From positions 1-18,434 of the forward strand of contig JAQTNI010000027.1 of NCBI GenBank assembly GCA_028713935.1: DNA of 18,434 bases, written 5' to 3'. The translations under genes were made by a program, and so were the position numbers. The stretch is from Candidatus Iainarchaeum sp. GTDB taxonomy: Archaea > Iainarchaeota > Iainarchaeia > Iainarchaeales > GCA-2688035. The notes beneath the pieces are model-generated. The model was not told the DNA's origin. It ran no database searches and was given only the letters and a program-made list of their open reading frames with translations. Of this stretch, positions 9,059-17,304 are shown one piece after another (the first letter of the stretch is position 1; each line of letters begins with the position of its first letter).

Positions 9059-9871
9059 TTAAAATGTCTCAAAATGTCGCACTTTTTTGTCAGGTTCTTT
9101 CAAACCATGCATGCGCAAAATAGCATCATCAACCTGCTTGCCAGACAAGTGAACATATTGCGCAGCCATTTTTGATTCCTGCACCCAGCCAAAATATTCT
9201 TTTAGTTGTGCTTCAGTCAAAAACTGGGCCATGTACGTTGCTCTTGAATGCCGAAAATGATGCGGATTAACAGGCTTTTGAATTTTTGCTCTTGTACCAC
9301 TTTTTTTTAAAACAGCAACCATGTTTCTATGGTGCATTCTTCCGGCAAATGTTTTTTCAATGTTCACGAAAGCAAAAGCATTTGGGTTTCCTCTTTCTGG
9401 ATGCTGATTTATCCATTCCAAGAGATTTGGTGCTGAATTTACGAGTCTTACTCTTCTCATGCCGGTTTTTCCATCAACAAGAATTTTGCAGCCGAACTCG
9501 TCAAAAACAATGTTCTTCAATTGCAGGGTTCCTATTTCTCCAATTCTTGCGCCAGATTCCCATAAAACAGAAATCAAGGCCTTATCGCGCAAATTCAAAG
9601 CATTTTTTTCCATTTCTTTGACATCCTCTTGAGATAACAGGCTTTCAGGCAGTTTATGCGAATGTTTGTTAGTGCTCTTAAACCAAGCAACACAAGCAGG
9701 ATAACCCTTGCCCTTGTTAAGCCACTTGTAAAAAACCTTCAAAACTTCCTTGTATGTGTCCAGTGTTGAGGGAGATTTTTTTTGTTCTTTTAATAAGCCA
9801 ACAAACCTTTGAAAATCTTCTACAGTAGCTGCTTCAAAATCCTTTTTCAAGAAAAGGCTGACAATTTTCAA
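9059..9871 (-). CDS. Tyrosine recombinase / archaeal integrase (core-binding and catalytic part)
   Basis: Catalytic signature present: WESGARIGEI (Arg), HHFRHSRAT (His-x-x-Arg) and AAQYVHLS (Tyr). The tracked TTG start is really an internal Leu of a longer frame (see 9932-10036). Confidence 0.85.
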   Translation of the reverse strand: MKIVSLFLKKDFEAATVEDFQRFVGLLKEQKKSPSTLDTYKEVLKVFYKWLNKGKGYPACVAWFKSTNKHSHKLPESLLSQEDVKEMEKNALNLRDKALISVLWESGARIGEIGTLQLKNIVFDEFGCKILVDGKTGMRRVRLVNSAPNLLEWINQHPERGNPNAFAFVNIEKTFAGRMHHRNMVAVLKKSGTRAKIQKPVNPHHFRHSRATYMAQFLTEAQLKEYFGWVQESKMAAQYVHLSGKQVDDAILRMHGLKEPDKKVRHFETF

Positions 9872-10089: not shown

Positions 10090-10143
10090 AGCTGACATTT
10101 ACTATCAAAGCGGGGTGAGGGAGTTGAACCCCCTTACTCGGCT

Positions 10144-10234
10144 AACCGCTGCAAACAGCGCCCTGCCGGATTTCTTTTTCTTTTGGGCACCTTGCACTTT
10201 TCTTTTTCTTTCCCAAAGAAAGAGAAAAGGGCAG
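10144..10234 (-). other. tRNA-Cys intron (91 nt), BHB-bounded
   Basis: Exon 1 is 10270-10235 (36 nt) and exon 2 is 10143-10109 (35 nt). Boundaries are inferred from manual BHB folding and could be off by 1-2 nt. Confidence 0.65.
10171..10228 (-). repeat. Three-arm Y-R-R element, copy A (inside the tRNA intron)
   Basis: Minus-strand sense: TTTTCTCTTTCTTT-GGG-AAAGAAAAAGAAAA-GTGCAAGGTGCCC-AAAAGAAAAAGAAA. Homologous to 16737-16786. Confidence 0.7.
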
Positions 10235-10274
10235 CTGCAGGCCGGTCCATGACCGTTCTGGCAACCCCGCAAAA

Positions 10275-10313
10275 GCCTTTCGAAGCACTCGCTGATGCTC
10301 GCTTTCGAAAGCC
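10275..10313 (+). repeat. Hairpin repeat H, copy 1 (identical 17-nt core CTCGCTGATGCTCGCTT)
   Basis: GCCTTTCGAAGCA-CTCGCTGATGCTCGCT-TTCGAAAGCC. It directly abuts the tRNA-Cys 5' end and lies ~45 nt downstream of the CDP-alcohol transferase stop. The second copy is at 17244-17287. Confidence 0.7.
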
Positions 10314-10357
10314 TTGGGAAAATTGAATTGTTATTTAATTGGGAATTGGAACTTATT

Positions 10358-10981
10358 TTAATGCTTTTCGCGGCTTTTATCGGCAAATTTTTTTGCCAGC
10401 AGGATTCTTTGCAGCGCTGTTATGTTTGAAAGCACTGCTAAAATAATCAGGACGAAAACCAGGTAAAGCGGGTTTATTACTGCCAGCAGGATTCCAACAA
10501 ACAGGATTATGAGGCGCTCCGCTCTTTCAAGTATTCCGCCTTTCAATTCTTTGCCTTCAATTACCAATTCTTTTTCTTTTGCAGAGGCCTTTGCATAAGT
10601 TGTCATCAGGCTTCCAAAAAAATAAAGGAAAATCCATGCATAGGCTGGAATAAAAAATTCCGGCAGGGAAGCAAACAGCAGGCCAAAAACAATCATTCCT
10701 TCCACATAGCGGTCAACAATTGTGTCCAGATAAGCCCCGAATTTTGAAACAGTGCCTGTAACGCGCGCAACACTTCCATCAACAAGGTCGATTGCCGCGG
10801 AAATAAAAAACAAAATTGCGGCTGCCAAAAATTGCTCTTTAACCAAAAAATAAACAGCAATAATTGCGGGGATTAATGAAACAAGAGTCCATTGGTTTGC
10901 GGAAAGGGGAACTTTGCTGCAAATAACCCCAATTTTAATTGACAATTTGTTGAATTTTTCCCTTTGCCTGTACAAAGTCAT
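10358..10981 (-). CDS. CDP-alcohol phosphatidyltransferase; likely archaetidylinositol-phosphate synthase
   Basis: 207 aa, polytopic. The signature D-x2-D-G-x2-A-R-x8-G-x3-D-x3-D is read in AIDLVDGSVARVTGTVSKFGAYLDTIVDRYVE. It starts 3 nt after the MIPS stop. Confidence 0.8.
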   Translation of the reverse strand: MTLYRQREKFNKLSIKIGVICSKVPLSANQWTLVSLIPAIIAVYFLVKEQFLAAAILFFISAAIDLVDGSVARVTGTVSKFGAYLDTIVDRYVEGMIVFGLLFASLPEFFIPAYAWIFLYFFGSLMTTYAKASAKEKELVIEGKELKGGILERAERLIILFVGILLAVINPLYLVFVLIILAVLSNITALQRILLAKKFADKSREKH

Positions 10982-10983
10982 TT

Positions 10984-12099
10984 TTATCTTTCCCTGCTGC
11001 CCTGAATAAATTCTTCAAGCATCTGCCTTGCAATGTCATCAGGATACTGGATTGGAGGATGCTTCATAAGATAAGCGGAAATAGAGGTTAATGGCCCGGA
11101 AATTTTTCTGTCAAGGGCAATTTTGCATGCGCGGATTGCATCGATTACAACGCCGGCGCTGTTTGGGCTGTCTTCAACGCTTAACCTCAATTCAAGGTTC
11201 ATTGGAATGTCGCCAAACTGGCTTCCTTCAATGCGCAGAAAACAAATTTTTTGGTCAAAAAGCCATGGCACATAATCGCTTGGCCCTACATGAATCAATT
11301 CCCAGGGAAGAGGCGCAGACATATTTGACTGGACTGATTCTGTCTTGGAAATTTTTTTGCTCTTCAGCCTTGCCTGTTCCTTCATGTTCAAAAAATCAGT
11401 GTTGCCCCCAACATTCAATTGGTAAGTGCCGTTGATTTTTATTCCGCGGTCACAGGCAAGCTTTGCCAAAACCCTGTGGACAATTGTGGCGCCCAACTGG
11501 CTTTTCATGTCATCGCCAAGAACAGGCAGGCCCTTTGACTCAAATTTTTTTGCCCACTCTGAATTGGAGGCAATAAAAACAGGCATGCAGTTTATGAAAC
11601 CGCATCCCGCTTCAAGCGCGGCCTGTGCATAAAATTTTGTGGCTTCCTCGCTGCCGACAGGTATGTAATTGACAAGAATTTCTGCGCCGGATTTTTTAAG
11701 CTCGGAAATAACATCAACAGGCTTCTGTTTTTCATCAACCAAAAAAGCCCTGTCTGCTGGCCAGTCAGCCATATGGCTTGCAACCCCATCAAGCACCGGG
11801 CCTTTCTGCACAATCACTTTTTGCTTTGGAATTTTTTTGCAGAAAACCTTTGTGCAATTCGGCTTTTCAAAAATCGCTTCCGAAAGGTCCTTGCCTACTT
11901 TTCTCCTGTCAATGTCAAAAGCGGCTACAAACTTAATGTCGGAAATCTTGTAAGGGCCGAAAACATTGTGCATAAGCCCCGGCACCGGCTCAGCATTTGA
12001 ATCGACATCCTTGTAATAATAAATTCCCTGCAAAAGCGAGGAAAAACAATTCCCAACTCCAGAAACAGCAACCTTAATCTCTCCTGCCAGAAAAACCAC
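10984..12099 (-). CDS. myo-inositol-1-phosphate synthase (archaeal type)
   Basis: 371 aa. It has the N-terminal Rossmann segment KVAVSGVGNCFSSLLQGIYYY, the MKSQLGATIVHRVLA and LNVGGNTDF blocks, and a C-terminus SPNSAGVVIDAIRACK. GTG start. Confidence 0.85.
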   Translation of the reverse strand: MVFLAGEIKVAVSGVGNCFSSLLQGIYYYKDVDSNAEPVPGLMHNVFGPYKISDIKFVAAFDIDRRKVGKDLSEAIFEKPNCTKVFCKKIPKQKVIVQKGPVLDGVASHMADWPADRAFLVDEKQKPVDVISELKKSGAEILVNYIPVGSEEATKFYAQAALEAGCGFINCMPVFIASNSEWAKKFESKGLPVLGDDMKSQLGATIVHRVLAKLACDRGIKINGTYQLNVGGNTDFLNMKEQARLKSKKISKTESVQSNMSAPLPWELIHVGPSDYVPWLFDQKICFLRIEGSQFGDIPMNLELRLSVEDSPNSAGVVIDAIRACKIALDRKISGPLTSISAYLMKHPPIQYPDDIARQMLEEFIQGSRER

Positions 12100-16595: not shown

Positions 16596-16736
16596 TTGAA
16601 TCTTTTAAGAATAGGAAATTTGGGTTTAAATCCTTTTTGGCATTGAAAAGCAGGTTTTTAAAACAAAGCAAGTCTAATTTAATTAATAATAATTGTTTTA
16701 AATTCTCAATTTTTAAAGGGTGTTTTTTTGGCCGCC

Positions 16737-16786
16737 TTTTCTTTCTTTGCGAAAGAAAGAAAATGCAGGTTGCCAAAAGAAAGAAA
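16737..16786 (+). repeat. Three-arm Y-R-R element, copy B (upstream of aIF2-beta)
   Basis: TTTTCTTTCTTT-GCG-AAAGAAAGAAAA-TGCAGGTTGCC-AAAAGAAAGAAA. Y1/R2 form a perfect 12-bp hairpin. R3 repeats (and mirrors) R2. Confidence 0.7.
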
Positions 16787-16827
16787 CCATAAACCTTTGA
16801 TAAACAGTTAAAAAAAAGTGTTTTTTT

Positions 16828-17244
16828 ATGGAATATGAGCAGATGCTGGACAGGCTTTATTTGTCTTTGCCGAAAGAGGCTTTGAACAAGGAAAGGTTTG
16901 AAATGCCGAGGGCTGAGTCTTTTGTGCAGGGCACAAAAACAATAATAAAAAATTTTTCCCCTATTCTGAAAGCAATCAACAGGGATAATGAGCAGTCAAA
17001 AAGGCATTTTGTAAAGTATCTTGCAAAGGAAACAGCAAGCCCAGCGAACATTGAGGAAAGCCAGCTTATTCTGGGCGGAAAATTTTCAGATTTTCAGGTT
17101 AATGATTTGCTGAAAAGCTATATTACACAGTTTGTTCTCTGCCCTGTATGCAAAAAGCCCGATACTCATGTGATTGAAAAGCAGGGAGTAAAAATTCTCA
17201 AGTGCGAGGCCTGTGGTGCAATTTCCTCTGTAAAAGGGCTATAA
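16828..17244 (+). CDS. eif2b: Translation initiation factor aIF2 beta subunit
   Basis: 138 aa. The N-terminus is YEQMLDRLYLSLP and the C-terminal C4 zinc ribbon is CPVCKKPDT...CEACG. Length and layout are typical of aIF2-beta. Confidence 0.9.
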   Translation: MEYEQMLDRLYLSLPKEALNKERFEMPRAESFVQGTKTIIKNFSPILKAINRDNEQSKRHFVKYLAKETASPANIEESQLILGGKFSDFQVNDLLKSYITQFVLCPVCKKPDTHVIEKQGVKILKCEACGAISSVKGL

Positions 17245-17287
17245 AACCTTTTCGGAGCGCTCGCTGATGCTCGCTTCCAAAAGGTTT
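17244..17287 (+). repeat. Hairpin repeat H, copy 2 (identical 17-nt core CTCGCTGATGCTCGCTT)
   Basis: AAACCTTTTCGGAGCG-CTCGCTGATGCT-CGCTTCCAAAAGGTTT. It begins at the last base of the aIF2-beta TAA. Confidence 0.7.
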
Positions 17288-17304
17288 ACGAAAAACAAGG
17301 TGAA

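Follow-up and report, generated by a model that had tools for sequence, protein, structure and literature searches.

Here, we describe a family of 45–65-nt interspersed repeats in DPANN archaea, apparently new to the literature, in which a pyrimidine arm (Y1), a purine arm (R2) and a second, mirrored purine arm (R3) follow one another on a single strand and change together as a purine-motif triple helix predicts. Usual triplex proposals rest on single sequences; the present family offers about 100 independent copies, 25 arm variants and several unrelated linkers. About half of the copies lie inside tRNA introns or start at most 5 nt from a tRNA end. We tentatively read the element as a tRNA-linked selfish mobile repeat in which a class II intrastrand purine-motif triplex has been selected and whose fold acts in the transcript, a reading that we regard as possible rather than probable.

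Two copies of a three-arm element in one contig

The window analyzed here spans positions 1–18,434 of contig JAQTNI010000027.1 (18,434 nt, 37% G+C) from Candidatus Iainarchaeum sp. (assembly GCA_028713935.1), and it contains two copies of the element, A and B (Table 1). An earlier note had described both as GCC(C), Y1, a 3-nt loop, R2, a linker and R3, with R3 an exact mirror of R2 and copy A inside a tRNA intron. The layout can be read directly from the sequence, the mirror is exact in copy A and in copy B, and ARAGORN with introns allowed gives a tRNA-Cys(GCA) at c[10109,10270] whose intron contains copy A. The linker, given in the note as TGCA(A)GG(T)TGCC(C), is likewise present, although its best alignment is the indel-free TGCA-NNN-TGCC. 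Copy A carries an extra G after R2 and an extra C before R3, which go with a third C before Y1; across the family these three nucleotides are jointly present in 63 members and jointly absent in 33, with 2 exceptions.

Table 1. Positions of the element copies and of the tRNA-Cys gene in the window
Feature	Positions	Strand	Sequence	Remark
Copy A, whole	10171-10234	minus		opens the 91-nt intron of the tRNA-Cys(GCA) gene
Copy A, 5' motif	10229-10234	minus	CTGCCC (C1-U2-G3-C4-C5-C6)	sequence reading; the intron begins at C1
Copy A, pyrimidine arm Y1	10215-10228	minus	TTTTCTCTTTCTTT	pairs with R2 in the predicted fold
Copy A, loop	10212-10214	minus	GGG	sequence reading
Copy A, purine arm R2	10198-10211	minus	AAAGAAAAAGAAAA	Watson-Crick partner of Y1
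Copy A, linker	10185-10197	minus	GTGCAAGGTGCCC	G1-U2-G3-C4-A5-A6-G7-G8-U9-G10-C11-C12-C13
Copy A, third arm R3	10171-10184	minus	AAAAGAAAAAGAAA	exact mirror of R2
Copy A, rest of intron	10144-10170	minus	TCCGGCAGGGCGCTGTTTGCAGCGGTT	would complete the bulge-helix-bulge splicing motif (hand pairing)
Copy B, whole	16732-16786	plus		intergenic
Copy B, 5' motif	16732-16736	plus	CCGCC (C1-C2-G3-C4-C5)	sequence reading
Copy B, pyrimidine arm Y1	16737-16748	plus	TTTTCTTTCTTT	sequence reading
Copy B, loop	16749-16751	plus	GCG	sequence reading
Copy B, purine arm R2	16752-16763	plus	AAAGAAAGAAAA	12/12 pairs with Y1 perfect (predicted fold)
Copy B, linker	16764-16774	plus	TGCAGGTTGCC	sequence reading
Copy B, third arm R3	16775-16786	plus	AAAAGAAAGAAA	exact mirror of R2
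tRNA-Cys(GCA) gene	10109-10270	minus		ARAGORN, introns allowed; intron at 37/38
tRNA-Cys exon 1	10270-10235	minus		ARAGORN, introns allowed
tRNA-Cys intron, 91 nt	10234-10144	minus		ARAGORN, introns allowed
tRNA-Cys exon 2	10143-10109	minus		ARAGORN, introns allowed

The Y1/R2 stem of copy A contains a single C·A mismatch. In its linker, the 5' half pairs with the 5' motif and the 3' half repeats the GCCC that precedes Y1. Copy B ends 41 nt upstream of the aIF2-beta start codon (ATG at 16828), and a TATA-like TTTGATAAA lies just downstream of it; the same downstream motif follows the element in locus L010. The combined linker-plus-R3 pattern TGCANNNTGCC(N)AAAAGAAA has two matches in the window and none in 200 dinucleotide-preserving shuffles. 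Simple purine tracts are not enriched (21 matches against 23.8 expected), so the signal lies in the arrangement and not in low complexity as such.

A repeat family restricted to DPANN archaea

Two pattern scans of public collections yielded approximately 120 further copies, 98 of them distinct. The genome scan returned 115 loci, about 35 of which are true members and the remainder chance bacterial matches. A scan of metagenome contigs in which R3 was left unconstrained returned 86 matches, and every one of the 86 has an A-rich third arm straight after GCC(C), degenerate in three (L135, L137 and L174). Titled true members come from metagenome-assembled genomes (MAGs) labelled Iainarchaeum, Diapherotrites, Micrarchaeota, Nanoarchaeota/Nanoarchaeia or simply 'archaeon', and taking these labels as DPANN, all true copies fall within that group. 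Two scans of viral contigs found zero copies. At the gathering threshold Rfam gave no match in the window and only ordinary tRNAs in 18 related loci, and at relaxed thresholds it gave generic hairpin matches only. Literature searches on tRNA introns with triple helices or in DPANN archaea returned no description of the element.

The mirror rule extends beyond the conserved linker. A generic, linker-free finder for the three-arm arrangement produced 183 matches in 737 kb of DPANN loci; a shuffle yielded 1 match, and 576 kb of bacterial loci yielded 7. Among the DPANN matches are subfamilies whose linkers are unrelated to that of the main family (CUGG/CUUG, CUGCAC and a 13-nt type) and that keep the mirror rule. 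That the similarity is a chance product of purine and pyrimidine tracts in an AT-rich genome might be entertained given the low G+C content of the window and a tract frequency no different from expectation, but the shuffle results for both the composite pattern and the linker-free finder speak against it. The earlier note had called for more copies and for a test of whether R3 tracks the other arms, and had named as damaging outcomes copies whose R3 departs from R2/Y1 or a generic purine-tract population that has no conserved linker. The finding withstood this test: across 98 distinct members, R3 follows Y1 and R2 and the linker is conserved. The chance reading is already refuted, and we give it practically no weight.

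Three arms covary in register

Y1 and R2 form a hairpin stem. Among 1031 stem pairs, 1024 are Watson-Crick (864 U-A and 160 C-G), with 4 C·A and 3 U·G, a split that is uninformative about the selected strand, and 97.2% of Y1:R2 cells are paired as compared with 87.7% in shuffles and 57–67% when the arms are slid against each other. The first loop measures 3–4 nt in 97 of 98 members; 0 GNRA and 7 UNCG tetraloops among the 98 are likewise uninformative about selection at the RNA level.

R3 reads as the in-register parallel complement of Y1 at 1015 of 1020 positions in the 98 distinct members and as the mirror of R2 at 1014 of 1020. Counting only positions unforced by the search patterns, the R3/Y1 rule holds at 334 of 334, compared with a mean of 73% and a maximum of 82% under a shuffled-partner null. 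Interior C/G positions are identical across the arms in 96 of the 98 members (null mean, 45). In a MAFFT alignment that leaves the optional C/G/C positions ungapped, which makes them appear as C-G versus U-A substitutions, 207 of 207 R3/Y1 cells are complementary and 45 of them are changed on both sides; agreement in this alignment is 100% at slide 0 and 70–77% at slides of 1–3 columns. The rule is kept over 25 arm types of 7–16 nt and in copies from the same genome that carry different arms (copies A and B of the window, L003/L026 and L039/L059). The triplex-compatible geometry that the earlier note had seen in two copies is thereby strongly reinforced.

The order of the arms is fixed. Both window copies and all 98 distinct members run pyrimidine-purine-purine, and among asymmetric arms of at least 9 nt this order was found 114 times and its reverse never. 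The second loop of the main family, copies A and B of the window among it, measures 11–13 nt and is partly paired, whereas published limits are at most 10 nt; it is 4–6 nt in the CUGG and CUGCAC subfamilies.

A covarying helix extends the stem

Beyond the arms, a conserved, slightly irregular helix joins the 5' CYGCC(C) to the linker (G)UGYARG, and it covaries and tolerates G·U. Position 2 of the 5' motif and position 6 of the linker form U-A in 62 and C-G in 34 members (48 and 27 in the alignment); copy B and 34 other members combine C at the former with G at the latter (TGCAGG). One pair of this stem extension is G-C in 47 and G·U in 30 of the 77 aligned sequences, and G·U is present in 41 of 63 unforced members. 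A C·U mismatch and a bulged A are conserved in the stem extension of every member. A closing helix formed by GGC after R3 was considered as a defining part of the element and dropped, as only about 38% of members carry that GGC.

The element opens the intron of a tRNA-Cys gene

The tRNA-Cys(GCA) gene was called neither by default ARAGORN nor by Rfam, and removing its intron leaves a 71-nt tRNA with a cloverleaf fold (ARAGORN). Hand pairing of the exon-intron junctions gives a central helix of 4 bp between C32-U33-G34-C35 and GCGG (10149-10146), flanked by two splice-site bulges of 3 nt each, AG|C and UU|A (the UU at 10145-10144), and an outer helix of UGC with GCA (10152-10150). The anticodon stem CCGGC/GCCGA has 4 Watson-Crick pairs and a mismatched C27·A43. 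As far as can be judged from these pairings, the intron would qualify as a canonical archaeal bulge-helix-bulge intron at 37/38, and a like layout is found in L019 and L138.

The U2-G3-C4 of copy A has two possible partners, the GCA of the outer splicing helix or the linker, with which it forms the stem extension (P1b). The minimum free energy fold favors the element's own hairpin over the splicing motif. A tyrosine recombinase gene adjoins the intron-bearing tRNA in the window, in L053/L147 and in L056. We looked for an att-site duplicate of the tRNA-Cys 3' end, the expected mark of an integrated element beside the integrase, and rejected this candidate, as the only match was 11 nt long (149-159, E = 0.09).

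Genomic setting suggests a probably mobile unit

At tRNA genes, the element begins directly at the 5' splice site or a few nucleotides from the RNase Z site. C1 is the intron start in 14 of 31 distinct canonical introns and lies at most 8 nt off in the remainder. Of 59 tRNA-linked copies, 52 are on the tRNA's own strand, including every intron copy. Five copies abut a tRNA 5' end on the strand opposite to the tRNA (these head-to-head copies include L143/L154 and two in L194), and RNA co-processing is no explanation for them. Away from tRNAs, the sense strand agrees with both flanking genes in 14 cases versus 6, and eight copies begin 1–3 nt past an upstream stop codon.

Anticodon-loop introns of at least 18 isoacceptors carry family copies. 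T-loop introns are occupied as well and, judging by flanking sequence, D-loop introns probably are. Deletion scanning with ARAGORN, a brute-force approach to non-canonical introns that is noisy near tRNA 3' ends, yielded clean solutions only for one tRNA-His with a T-loop intron (L138/L141/L159), and four other T-loop cases (L133, L140, L153 and L200) were assigned by eye from their flanks. Because copies also occur directly after tRNA 3' ends, after stop codons and between genes, the repeat and not the intron is the unit.

The element is probably mobile, as suggested by three features. In L142, a copy sits between two genes that overlap each other in the window, a presence/absence difference at a syntenic site; direct repeats of 18–33 nt flank 3 of about 37 insertions tested; and some introns carry two elements. 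Target-site duplication as a general feature was rejected on the small number and variable length of those repeats, and the family showed neither terminal inverted repeats nor a conserved right end.

A proposed fold and its possible role

We propose that on the sense strand Y1 would first pair with R2 and that the irregular helix between the 5' motif and the linker would then lengthen this stem. The strand would next turn and bring GCC(C)-R3 back alongside the hairpin, with the polarity of Y1 and opposite to that of R2, placing A over A-U(T) and G over G-C in reverse-Hoogsteen triples of the purine motif. Class II intrastrand purine-motif triplexes have the order 5' pyrimidine, purine, reverse-Hoogsteen purine 3' (PMC4666352), and by arm order and mirrored third block the element appears to fit this class. 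Since Y1 is a same-strand inverted repeat of R2 and covaries with both purine arms, the pattern argues for a fold of one strand rather than a structure of supercoiled duplex.

That RNA is the folding strand is hinted at by the G·U pairs of the stem extension, the orientation of 52 of 59 tRNA-linked copies and the starts at RNA-processing sites. Copy A is the first 64 nt of the intron and would leave with it upon cutting by the splicing endonuclease, having lent its UGC(C) to the outer splicing helix as one of the two strands; copy B is a free-standing intergenic copy. What tRNA-processing enzymes set free would be a compact, nuclease-resistant RNA, and the element itself would be a selfish mobile passenger rather than a host gene. 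A more specific form of this proposal, which we consider unlikely, is a natural all-RNA A·A-U/G·G-C triplex of 8–17 consecutive triples that arises as a by-product of tRNA maturation, either spliced out with an intron by the splicing endonuclease or freed by RNase Z as a 3' trailer. If it holds, the third strand would make the element unusually stable, and this would be the first natural RNA triplex of the purine-motif class, with covariation evidence comparable to that for ENE triplexes, and would define a new mode of hitchhiking on tRNA genes for small or selfish RNAs.

Several observations sit poorly with a canonical RNA triplex. Purine-motif triplexes rich in A should be less stable than those rich in G. 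The GCC(C) that precedes R3 repeats the one that precedes Y1 letter for letter instead of being purine-matched to it, a misfit with canonical triplets that two competing Watson-Crick helices can also explain. The second loop of the main family exceeds those of classical intrastrand triplexes, for which searches have allowed 1–6 nt (ITxF) or 0–10 nt (Hoyne et al.) (PMC4666352). The purine motif is well established for DNA (PMC4666352), and, as far as Semerad and Maher (1994) are summarized in that paper, it was reported not to form with RNA strands; a later review calls the evidence on RNA purine motifs mixed and assigns natural RNA triplexes to the pyrimidine motif (PMC7583470). Published biophysics therefore counts against the RNA version.

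Alternative explanations

The same fold could instead form in single-stranded DNA, on the non-template strand of heavily transcribed genes such as those for tRNAs or during replication, as an all-DNA class II triplex of the kind shown for the E. coli BoxC/TM_ECO repeat. It could then stall polymerases, pose a polar barrier at meeting points of replication and transcription, or cause a local genome instability by which the repeat also spreads. Intrastrand triplexes of the purine motif made wholly of DNA form under physiological conditions, as opposed to the disputed RNA ones (PMC4666352, PMC7583470), and TM_ECO, which has the same pyrimidine-purine-purine layout, is linked to rearranged loci. 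The near absence of wobble from the triplex arms (3 U·G in 1031 pairs), the duplications flanking three insertions, the syntenic presence/absence difference and the five opposite-strand copies at tRNA 5' ends are also in keeping with DNA, and a fixed orientation to transcription fits folding of the non-template strand as well. Weighing on the other side, G·U(T) at the frequencies seen in the stem extension (30 of 77 aligned, 41 of 63 unforced) is not usual in hairpins of DNA, copies begin at the 5' splice site or near the RNase Z site with the UGCC in an RNA splicing helix, A-T-rich purine-motif triplexes of DNA are weak, and a DNA effect does not need the absolute arm order. We consider a DNA fold somewhat unlikely on balance.

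The earlier note had also offered a two-state Watson-Crick switch in which Y1 pairs with R2 or, shifted by 1–3 nt, with R3. The linker UGYA or a downstream GGCR would be contested by the duplicated YGCC boxes, and the element would toggle between two states, a long hairpin whose purine tail is free and another fold; in introns, this could control whether the splicing motif forms. Antiparallel Y1:R3 pairing in a shifted register, mismatched at one position at most, does exist in most members (mean 8.8 of 10.6 positions), but the conserved relation is a different one: a switch would call for an R3 that copies R2 directly, and in-register direct identity is 73–75% against 99–100% for the mirror, the apparent direct matches being shifted sub-runs of near-symmetric arms. 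Folds with R2 blocked average −7.1 kcal/mol, some 6 kcal/mol weaker than the unconstrained mean of −13.0. Mutually exclusive helices do exist: in L019 and L138 the splicing motif joins UGCC to a GGCA/GGCG further downstream, the linker AAGUUGCC pairs with GGCAACUU (L138, L140), with covariation of this pairing in L163 (CAGGUUGCC with GGCAACC), and linkers of the short-linker subfamily pair with the 5' flank (CAG/CUG, AAG/CUU); still, only about 38% of members have GGC after R3. A switch as the conserved function seems quite improbable to us. No greater credence attaches to a binding site for a protein, such as a tRNA-processing factor or a recombinase, or to a role of the T-rich and A-rich arms as transcription stop or promoter signals, with the mirror relation a by-product. 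The C·U mismatch and bulged A of every member are typical of recognition sites, copies occupy positions of archaeal terminators after tRNA 3' ends and stop codons, and a tyrosine recombinase gene lies beside intron-bearing tRNAs (the window, L053/L147, L056). A protein that reads sequence would, however, forbid the differing yet three-way matched arms of same-genome copies, and a stop signal within tRNA introns would be harmful. We know of no process or protein symmetry that makes or needs mirror repeats rather than inverted or direct ones. BoxC-type repeats showed neither promoter nor terminator activity (PMC4666352).

The functional molecule might also be the antisense RNA, which runs U-rich, linker, U-rich, loop, A-rich and could form a pyrimidine-motif triplex (U·A-U, C+·G-C) like that of MALAT1; at tRNA 5' ends, RNase P would make its protected 3' end. 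By the logic of the class definitions (PMC4666352) the mirror rule fits a pyrimidine motif on the complementary strand equally well, RNA triplexes of that type are well documented (PMC7583470), and the five head-to-head copies, 0–2 nt upstream of the tRNA 5' end and antisense on the tRNA's strand, reproduce the MALAT1-mascRNA layout. Yet 52 of 59 tRNA-linked copies face the opposite way and would require antisense transcription of tRNA genes, the sense strand prevails relative to flanking genes, eight copies start just past a stop codon, and neither window copy abuts a tRNA 5' end, which leaves this explanation very improbable. Further candidates were discarded. K-turn, C/D box or H/ACA guide RNAs, a self-cleaving ribozyme core and a second splice site in the linker were each rejected on sequence alone. 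An RNase P minihelix mimic has its tail CCA out of register, an intrinsic terminator would need a trailing U-tract, which the element lacks, and would not be expected inside introns, where the element occurs, and a recombinase core site is at odds with arms that vary among same-genome copies.

Implications

If the fold forms in RNA, the family bears on the long dispute over natural purine-motif RNA triplexes; a DNA fold would give the enigmatic BoxC/TM_ECO repeats their first counterpart in archaea and would bring evolutionary evidence of selection on the fold. The family also explains the 60–200-nt introns of many DPANN tRNA genes that defeat standard tRNA finders, provides a concrete, traceable unit for tracking the spread of archaeal tRNA introns, and supplies a simple sequence tag for DPANN contigs in metagenomes.

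Comparison with known systems

The closest known relative is BoxC/TM_ECO of E. coli and other Proteobacteria (Hoyne and Maher 2000; Holder et al. 2015, PMC4666352). Both are interspersed, extragenic and multi-copy, place a pyrimidine arm, short loop, purine arm, second loop and mirrored purine arm on one strand, let the loops vary freely under constrained arms, and combine copy numbers that vary among relatives with an association with rearranged loci. TM_ECO is rich in G and C (CCCTCNCCC ... GGGNGAGGG), its arms have a constant length of 9 nt and its second loop is 3 nt long, and it is bacterial with no reported link to tRNA genes. By contrast, the DPANN element is A/T-rich and confined to DPANN, its 7–16-nt arms covary three ways, its 11–13-nt linker forms a covarying helix with the 5' flank, and it sits in tRNA introns or at tRNA ends in a single arm order and mostly on the tRNA's strand. 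The BoxC/TM_ECO consensus CCCTCNCCC-N3-6-GGGNGAGGG-N3-GGGNGAGGG has no similarity to the A/T-rich window copies, which makes the DPANN element an analogue and not a homologue. A TM_ECO-like motif was seen only in L038, a bacterial chance locus.

Archaeal bulge-helix-bulge introns, including the 'transposed' families of Thermoproteales and the non-canonical introns of ARMAN/Micrarchaeota (PMC4090602; PMC3239211), offer a second comparison. Like mobile archaeal introns, the element is spread over isoacceptors, earlier taken as a sign of intron movement between genes; known mobile families are defined by overall sequence similarity, whereas the DPANN element is defined by its three-arm core. MITE/REP-type mobile repeats are marked by terminal inverted repeats with a target-site duplication of fixed length, or by an associated transposase; in the DPANN family, direct repeats of variable length flank a few insertions, one syntenic site differs by presence of the element, and terminal inverted repeats were not found.

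Among triple helices, the ENE with its A-rich tract (MALAT1, MEN-beta, KSHV PAN and transposon ENEs) similarly folds a genomic A-rich tract onto a U/A helix with an occasional G-C in register, and MALAT1 lies beside a tRNA-like unit with its end set by a tRNA-processing enzyme, a layout that five family members reproduce on the tRNA's strand. In ENE triplexes, however, two U-rich strands clamp one A-rich strand (pyrimidine motif), while the DPANN element on the tRNA-transcribed strand has one U-rich and two A-rich strands (purine motif); the U-U-A order of ENEs was absent from the tRNA's strand of copy A and occurs on the antisense strand only. ENEs are eukaryotic or viral and stabilize long RNAs. 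As in H-DNA repeats, R2-linker-R3 is a perfect homopurine mirror repeat, but for H-DNA two mirror halves suffice and the spacer is usually short, and the DPANN element adds Y1 on the same strand.

The element in the window

The earlier note had described two copies of an element with a 5' motif, a pyrimidine arm (Y1), a loop, a purine arm (R2), a linker and a second purine arm (R3). Reading both strands, we saw this layout in copies A and B, and in each, as claimed, R3 mirrors R2 exactly. Two matches to the linker-plus-R3 pattern occur in the window, against none in 200 shuffles, and plain purine tracts in the window showed no enrichment. The placement of copy A in a tRNA intron also held: ARAGORN with introns allowed finds a tRNA-Cys gene in which copy A makes up the first 64 nt of the intron. 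Neither default ARAGORN nor Rfam reported a tRNA in the window, the 91-nt intron making this gene invisible to both. Many related loci hold tRNA genes likewise missed by default finders, and DPANN tRNA sets are probably under-called. Paired by hand, the intron junctions appear to form a canonical bulge-helix-bulge motif, with copy A's own UGC as one strand of the outer helix.

Copy B sits between divergently oriented genes and ends 41 nt upstream of the aIF2-beta ATG. The motif 3' of it, also present 3' of the element at locus L010, is probably a BRE/TATA promoter for the downstream gene, and its position about 26 nt before the ATG implies a leaderless mRNA.

Features in and around the two window copies
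Feature	Position	Strand	Description
Copy A	10234 down to 10171	minus	CTGCCC; Y1 TTTTCTCTTTCTTT; loop GGG; R2 AAAGAAAAAGAAAA; linker GTGCAAGGTGCCC; R3 AAAAGAAAAAGAAA
Copy B	16732-16786	plus	CCGCC; Y1 TTTTCTTTCTTT; loop GCG; R2 AAAGAAAGAAAA; linker TGCAGGTTGCC; R3 AAAAGAAAGAAA
tRNA-Cys(GCA)	c[10109,10270]	minus	91-nt intron at 37/38
Anticodon stem of putative splicing motif			CCGGC with GCCGA, C27·A43 mismatch (hand pairing)
Central helix of putative splicing motif			CUGC with GCGG (hand pairing)
Bulges of putative splicing motif			AG↓C and UU↓A (hand pairing)
Outer helix of putative splicing motif			UGC with GCA (hand pairing)
Probable promoter	16790-16810		AAAC(C/A)TTTGATAAACA
Imperfect palindrome, 52 nt	10271-10322		AAAAGCCTTTCGAAGCACTCGCTGATGCTCGCTTTCGAAAGCCTTGGGAAAA; abuts tRNA-Cys 5' end
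Imperfect palindrome, 52 nt	17243-17294		begins at aIF2-beta stop codon
Tyrosine recombinase gene	9059-9871	minus	Pfam Phage_integrase; 238 nt downstream of tRNA-Cys 3' end, same strand
11-nt match	149-159	minus	exact match to last 11 nt of tRNA-Cys, same orientation

The 52-nt palindrome is a second two-copy repeat (81% identity between copies), and similar sequences in L186/L187 are again near a tRNA with an element-bearing intron. The tyrosine recombinase has homologues at L053 6618-7409 and L056 3769-4533 (40% and 36% identity), and the homologues in L053/L147 and L056 adjoin an intron-bearing tRNA too; these genes may belong to integrated elements or represent a chromosomal Xer-type gene. 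The 11-nt match, about 10 kb downstream of tRNA-Cys and past the recombinase gene, may mark the distal end of an integrated element or have arisen by chance (E = 0.09).

A repeat family across DPANN archaea

Scanning one genome per prokaryotic species with the linker and R3 start matched at least 115 loci. Among the matches listed, about 80 loci are chance hits in bacterial coding sequence, and 33 loci with 35 copies, both window copies included, carry the full upstream hairpin that was absent from the query; all of these listed hairpin-bearing loci are in MAGs labelled Iainarchaeum, Diapherotrites, Micrarchaeota, Nanoarchaeota or 'archaeon'. According to the earlier note, further copies in which R3 did not track R2 and Y1 would refute its proposal of a triple helix or hairpin switch. 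The family survived a metagenome scan that fixed only the Y1 start, R2 end and linker and left R3 unconstrained: all 86 matches continue straight after GCC(C) into an A-rich third arm, three of them degenerate. The viral contigs scanned contained no copies. Pooled, these members of a DPANN-wide, tRNA-linked repeat family number 98 distinct sequences, whose Y1 stems are of 25 kinds and 7-16 bp long.

A linker-free finder (arms of at least 8 nt, at most one mismatch) gave 183 matches in 737 kb of DPANN loci, one in a shuffle and seven in 576 kb of bacterial chance loci. It uncovered subfamilies with unrelated second loops, namely CUGG/CUUG/UUGG, CUGCAC/CUGUAC and a 13-nt UCUACRGUCUWKC type. In the type with a short loop, R3 also complements the bases 5' of Y1 (CC ... 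GG). Arm order is absolute: asymmetric arms 9 nt or longer gave 114 pyrimidine-purine-purine and 0 purine-purine-pyrimidine cases.

Some copies carry additional 3' sequence. Modules of GUUGCC(C) plus a purine tract, lacking a hairpin and with tracts unlike the first R3, follow the first third arm in L102 (298-420, three in tandem), L047, L126, L163, L194 and L115. In several Iainarchaeum/Diapherotrites copies a conserved hairpin, GTTTTCG-loop-CGAAAAC-AAGCA, lies directly 3' of the third arm (L031 6594-6620, L060 2590-2615, L093, L118, L123, L125, L139). This hairpin turns up in intergenic copies as well as within a tRNA-Thr intron, which suggests that the subgroup shares a longer unit.

Covariation of the three arms

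The hairpin covaries. Stem pairs in the 98 distinct members comprise 864 U-A, 160 C-G, 4 C·A and 3 U·G, and in a 77-sequence alignment the hairpin is 97.2% paired, compared with 87.7% in shuffles and 57-67% in slid registers. The third arm varies in step with the other two, with register and polarity as in a purine-motif triple helix: across the 98 members R3, read parallel and in register, complements Y1 at 1015 of 1020 positions, and at every one of the 334 positions outside those fixed by the search patterns, against a mean of 73% and a maximum of 82% when arms were re-paired between members. Interior C/G positions are concordant in 96 of 98 members (null mean 45), and four unforced columns are complementary in 207 of 207 cells, 45 with change on both sides, falling to 70-77% when slid.

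The 5' motif (consensus C1-Y2-G3-C4-C5-(C6)) and the linker ((G1)-U2-G3-Y4-A5-R6-G7-N8-U9-G10-C11-C12-(C13)) extend the stem. The optional C6, G1 and C13 are all present in 63 members and all absent in 33, with 2 exceptions.

Pairing between the 5' motif and the linker
5' motif	Linker	Pairing
C1	G7	C-G in 98/98; invariant, so uninformative
Y2	R6	U-A 62, C-G 34, 2 exceptions
G3	Y4	G-C or G·U; U in 41/63 unforced members
C4	G3	C-G 75, U·G 2, of 77
C5	U2	conserved mismatch
	A5	conserved bulge

Genomic context and signs of mobility

Contexts were counted in two overlapping tallies, one of 101 distinct main-family contexts and one that took in every linker type at an arm length of 9 nt or more. Thirty main-family copies sit in introns of the anticodon loop, with at least 18 isoacceptors represented, and C1 is the very first intron nucleotide in 14 of 31 cases (the intron start is at most 8 nt away in the rest). 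Some copies occupy T-loop introns, as in L138 (central helix GUUC with GAAC, outer helix UGCC with GGCG). Eleven copies begin 0-5 nt past the discriminator base of a same-strand tRNA, and the 5' end of an opposite-strand tRNA lies at 0-2 nt from four main-family copies, or five with all linker types. Subfamilies with other linkers show a tRNA link in 16 of 25 copies, and over all linker types 52 of 59 tRNA-linked copies lie on the tRNA's own strand. Of about 16 non-tRNA copies that have a same-strand upstream gene, eight begin 1-3 nt past the stop codon of that gene. C1 thus seems to be the true 5' boundary of the selected unit in very compact genomes, coinciding with RNA-processing sites.

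At L194 (6603-6950) and L154 (about 2060-2200, reverse-complement coordinates), a family member on the opposite strand abuts the 5' end of each of the adjacent minus-strand tRNA-Gly and tRNA-Val genes. The tRNA strand there reads U-rich, U-rich, A-rich and then RNase P site, a MALAT1-type layout, and the tRNA promoters would need to lie within the element.

Several copies bear signs of mobility or instability. At L142 (about 282-337) a copy lies between inositol-1-phosphate synthase and CDP-alcohol phosphatidyltransferase genes, 2 nt past the stop codon; in the window the same two genes overlap (10981-10984) without an element, the two synthase genes being 65% identical. Direct repeats of 18-33 nt flank three insertions (L039, identical to L122; L059, identical to L182; and L010). 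In one case a second copy of the initial 18 nt of tRNA-Leu lies upstream of the intact gene; in another the terminal ~21 nt of tRNA-Pro recur 79 nt past the element; at L010 the repeat is imperfect and 33 nt long. Some introns contain two elements, and the apical loop of one copy is enlarged by a 47-nt insertion. The element is plausibly a mobile passenger, and copy A would be removed by splicing together with the tRNA-Cys intron.

Folding strand and alternative folds

We infer that the element adopts a triple helix, with R3 parallel to Y1 and antiparallel to R2 in reverse-Hoogsteen pairing, and that this fold is what selection maintains. The two-state switch proposed in the earlier note, in which Y1 pairs by Watson-Crick with R2 or R3, is energetically possible (mean fold -7.1 kcal/mol with R2 blocked, -13.0 unconstrained), but it depends on a direct-repeat relation seen at only 73-75% of positions in the 98 members, and this is not the relation conserved by evolution.

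For the triple helix, we give RNA slightly better than even chances as the folding strand because the stem extension tolerates G·U, UGCC lies in the splicing helix, copies are in sense orientation and the hairpin comes first. Single-stranded DNA, which published biophysics, arms without wobble pairs and the instability signs favour, falls just short of even. The antisense strand would form an orthodox U·A-U / C+·G-C triplex, and in the five cases where copy and tRNA stand head-to-head it recreates the MALAT1-mascRNA layout, but every intron copy is oriented the other way.

Comparison with known triplex systems

Holder et al. (PMC4666352) define four intrastrand triplex classes, and the sense strand of the element has exactly their class II order, a 5' pyrimidine domain, a purine domain and a 3' reverse-Hoogsteen domain. 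According to the same work RNA is unable to form purine-motif triplexes; a later review describes the evidence as mixed and adds that natural RNA triplexes belong to the pyrimidine motif (PMC7583470). One chance match of our first pattern, in Methylococcaceae (L038, reverse-complement offset 7924), contains CCCTCTCCC-tct-GGGAGAGGA-ctg-GGGTGAGGG, which agrees with the published TM_ECO/BoxC triplex motif. In vitro, the E. coli BoxC/PIT/TM_ECO repeat, the example given by Holder et al., adopts a DNA triplex; it marks unstable loci and showed no promoter or terminator activity (PMC4666352). Since this repeat is bacterial, rich in G/C and has no sequence relationship to the DPANN family, the latter is an analogue and not a member of that repeat family.
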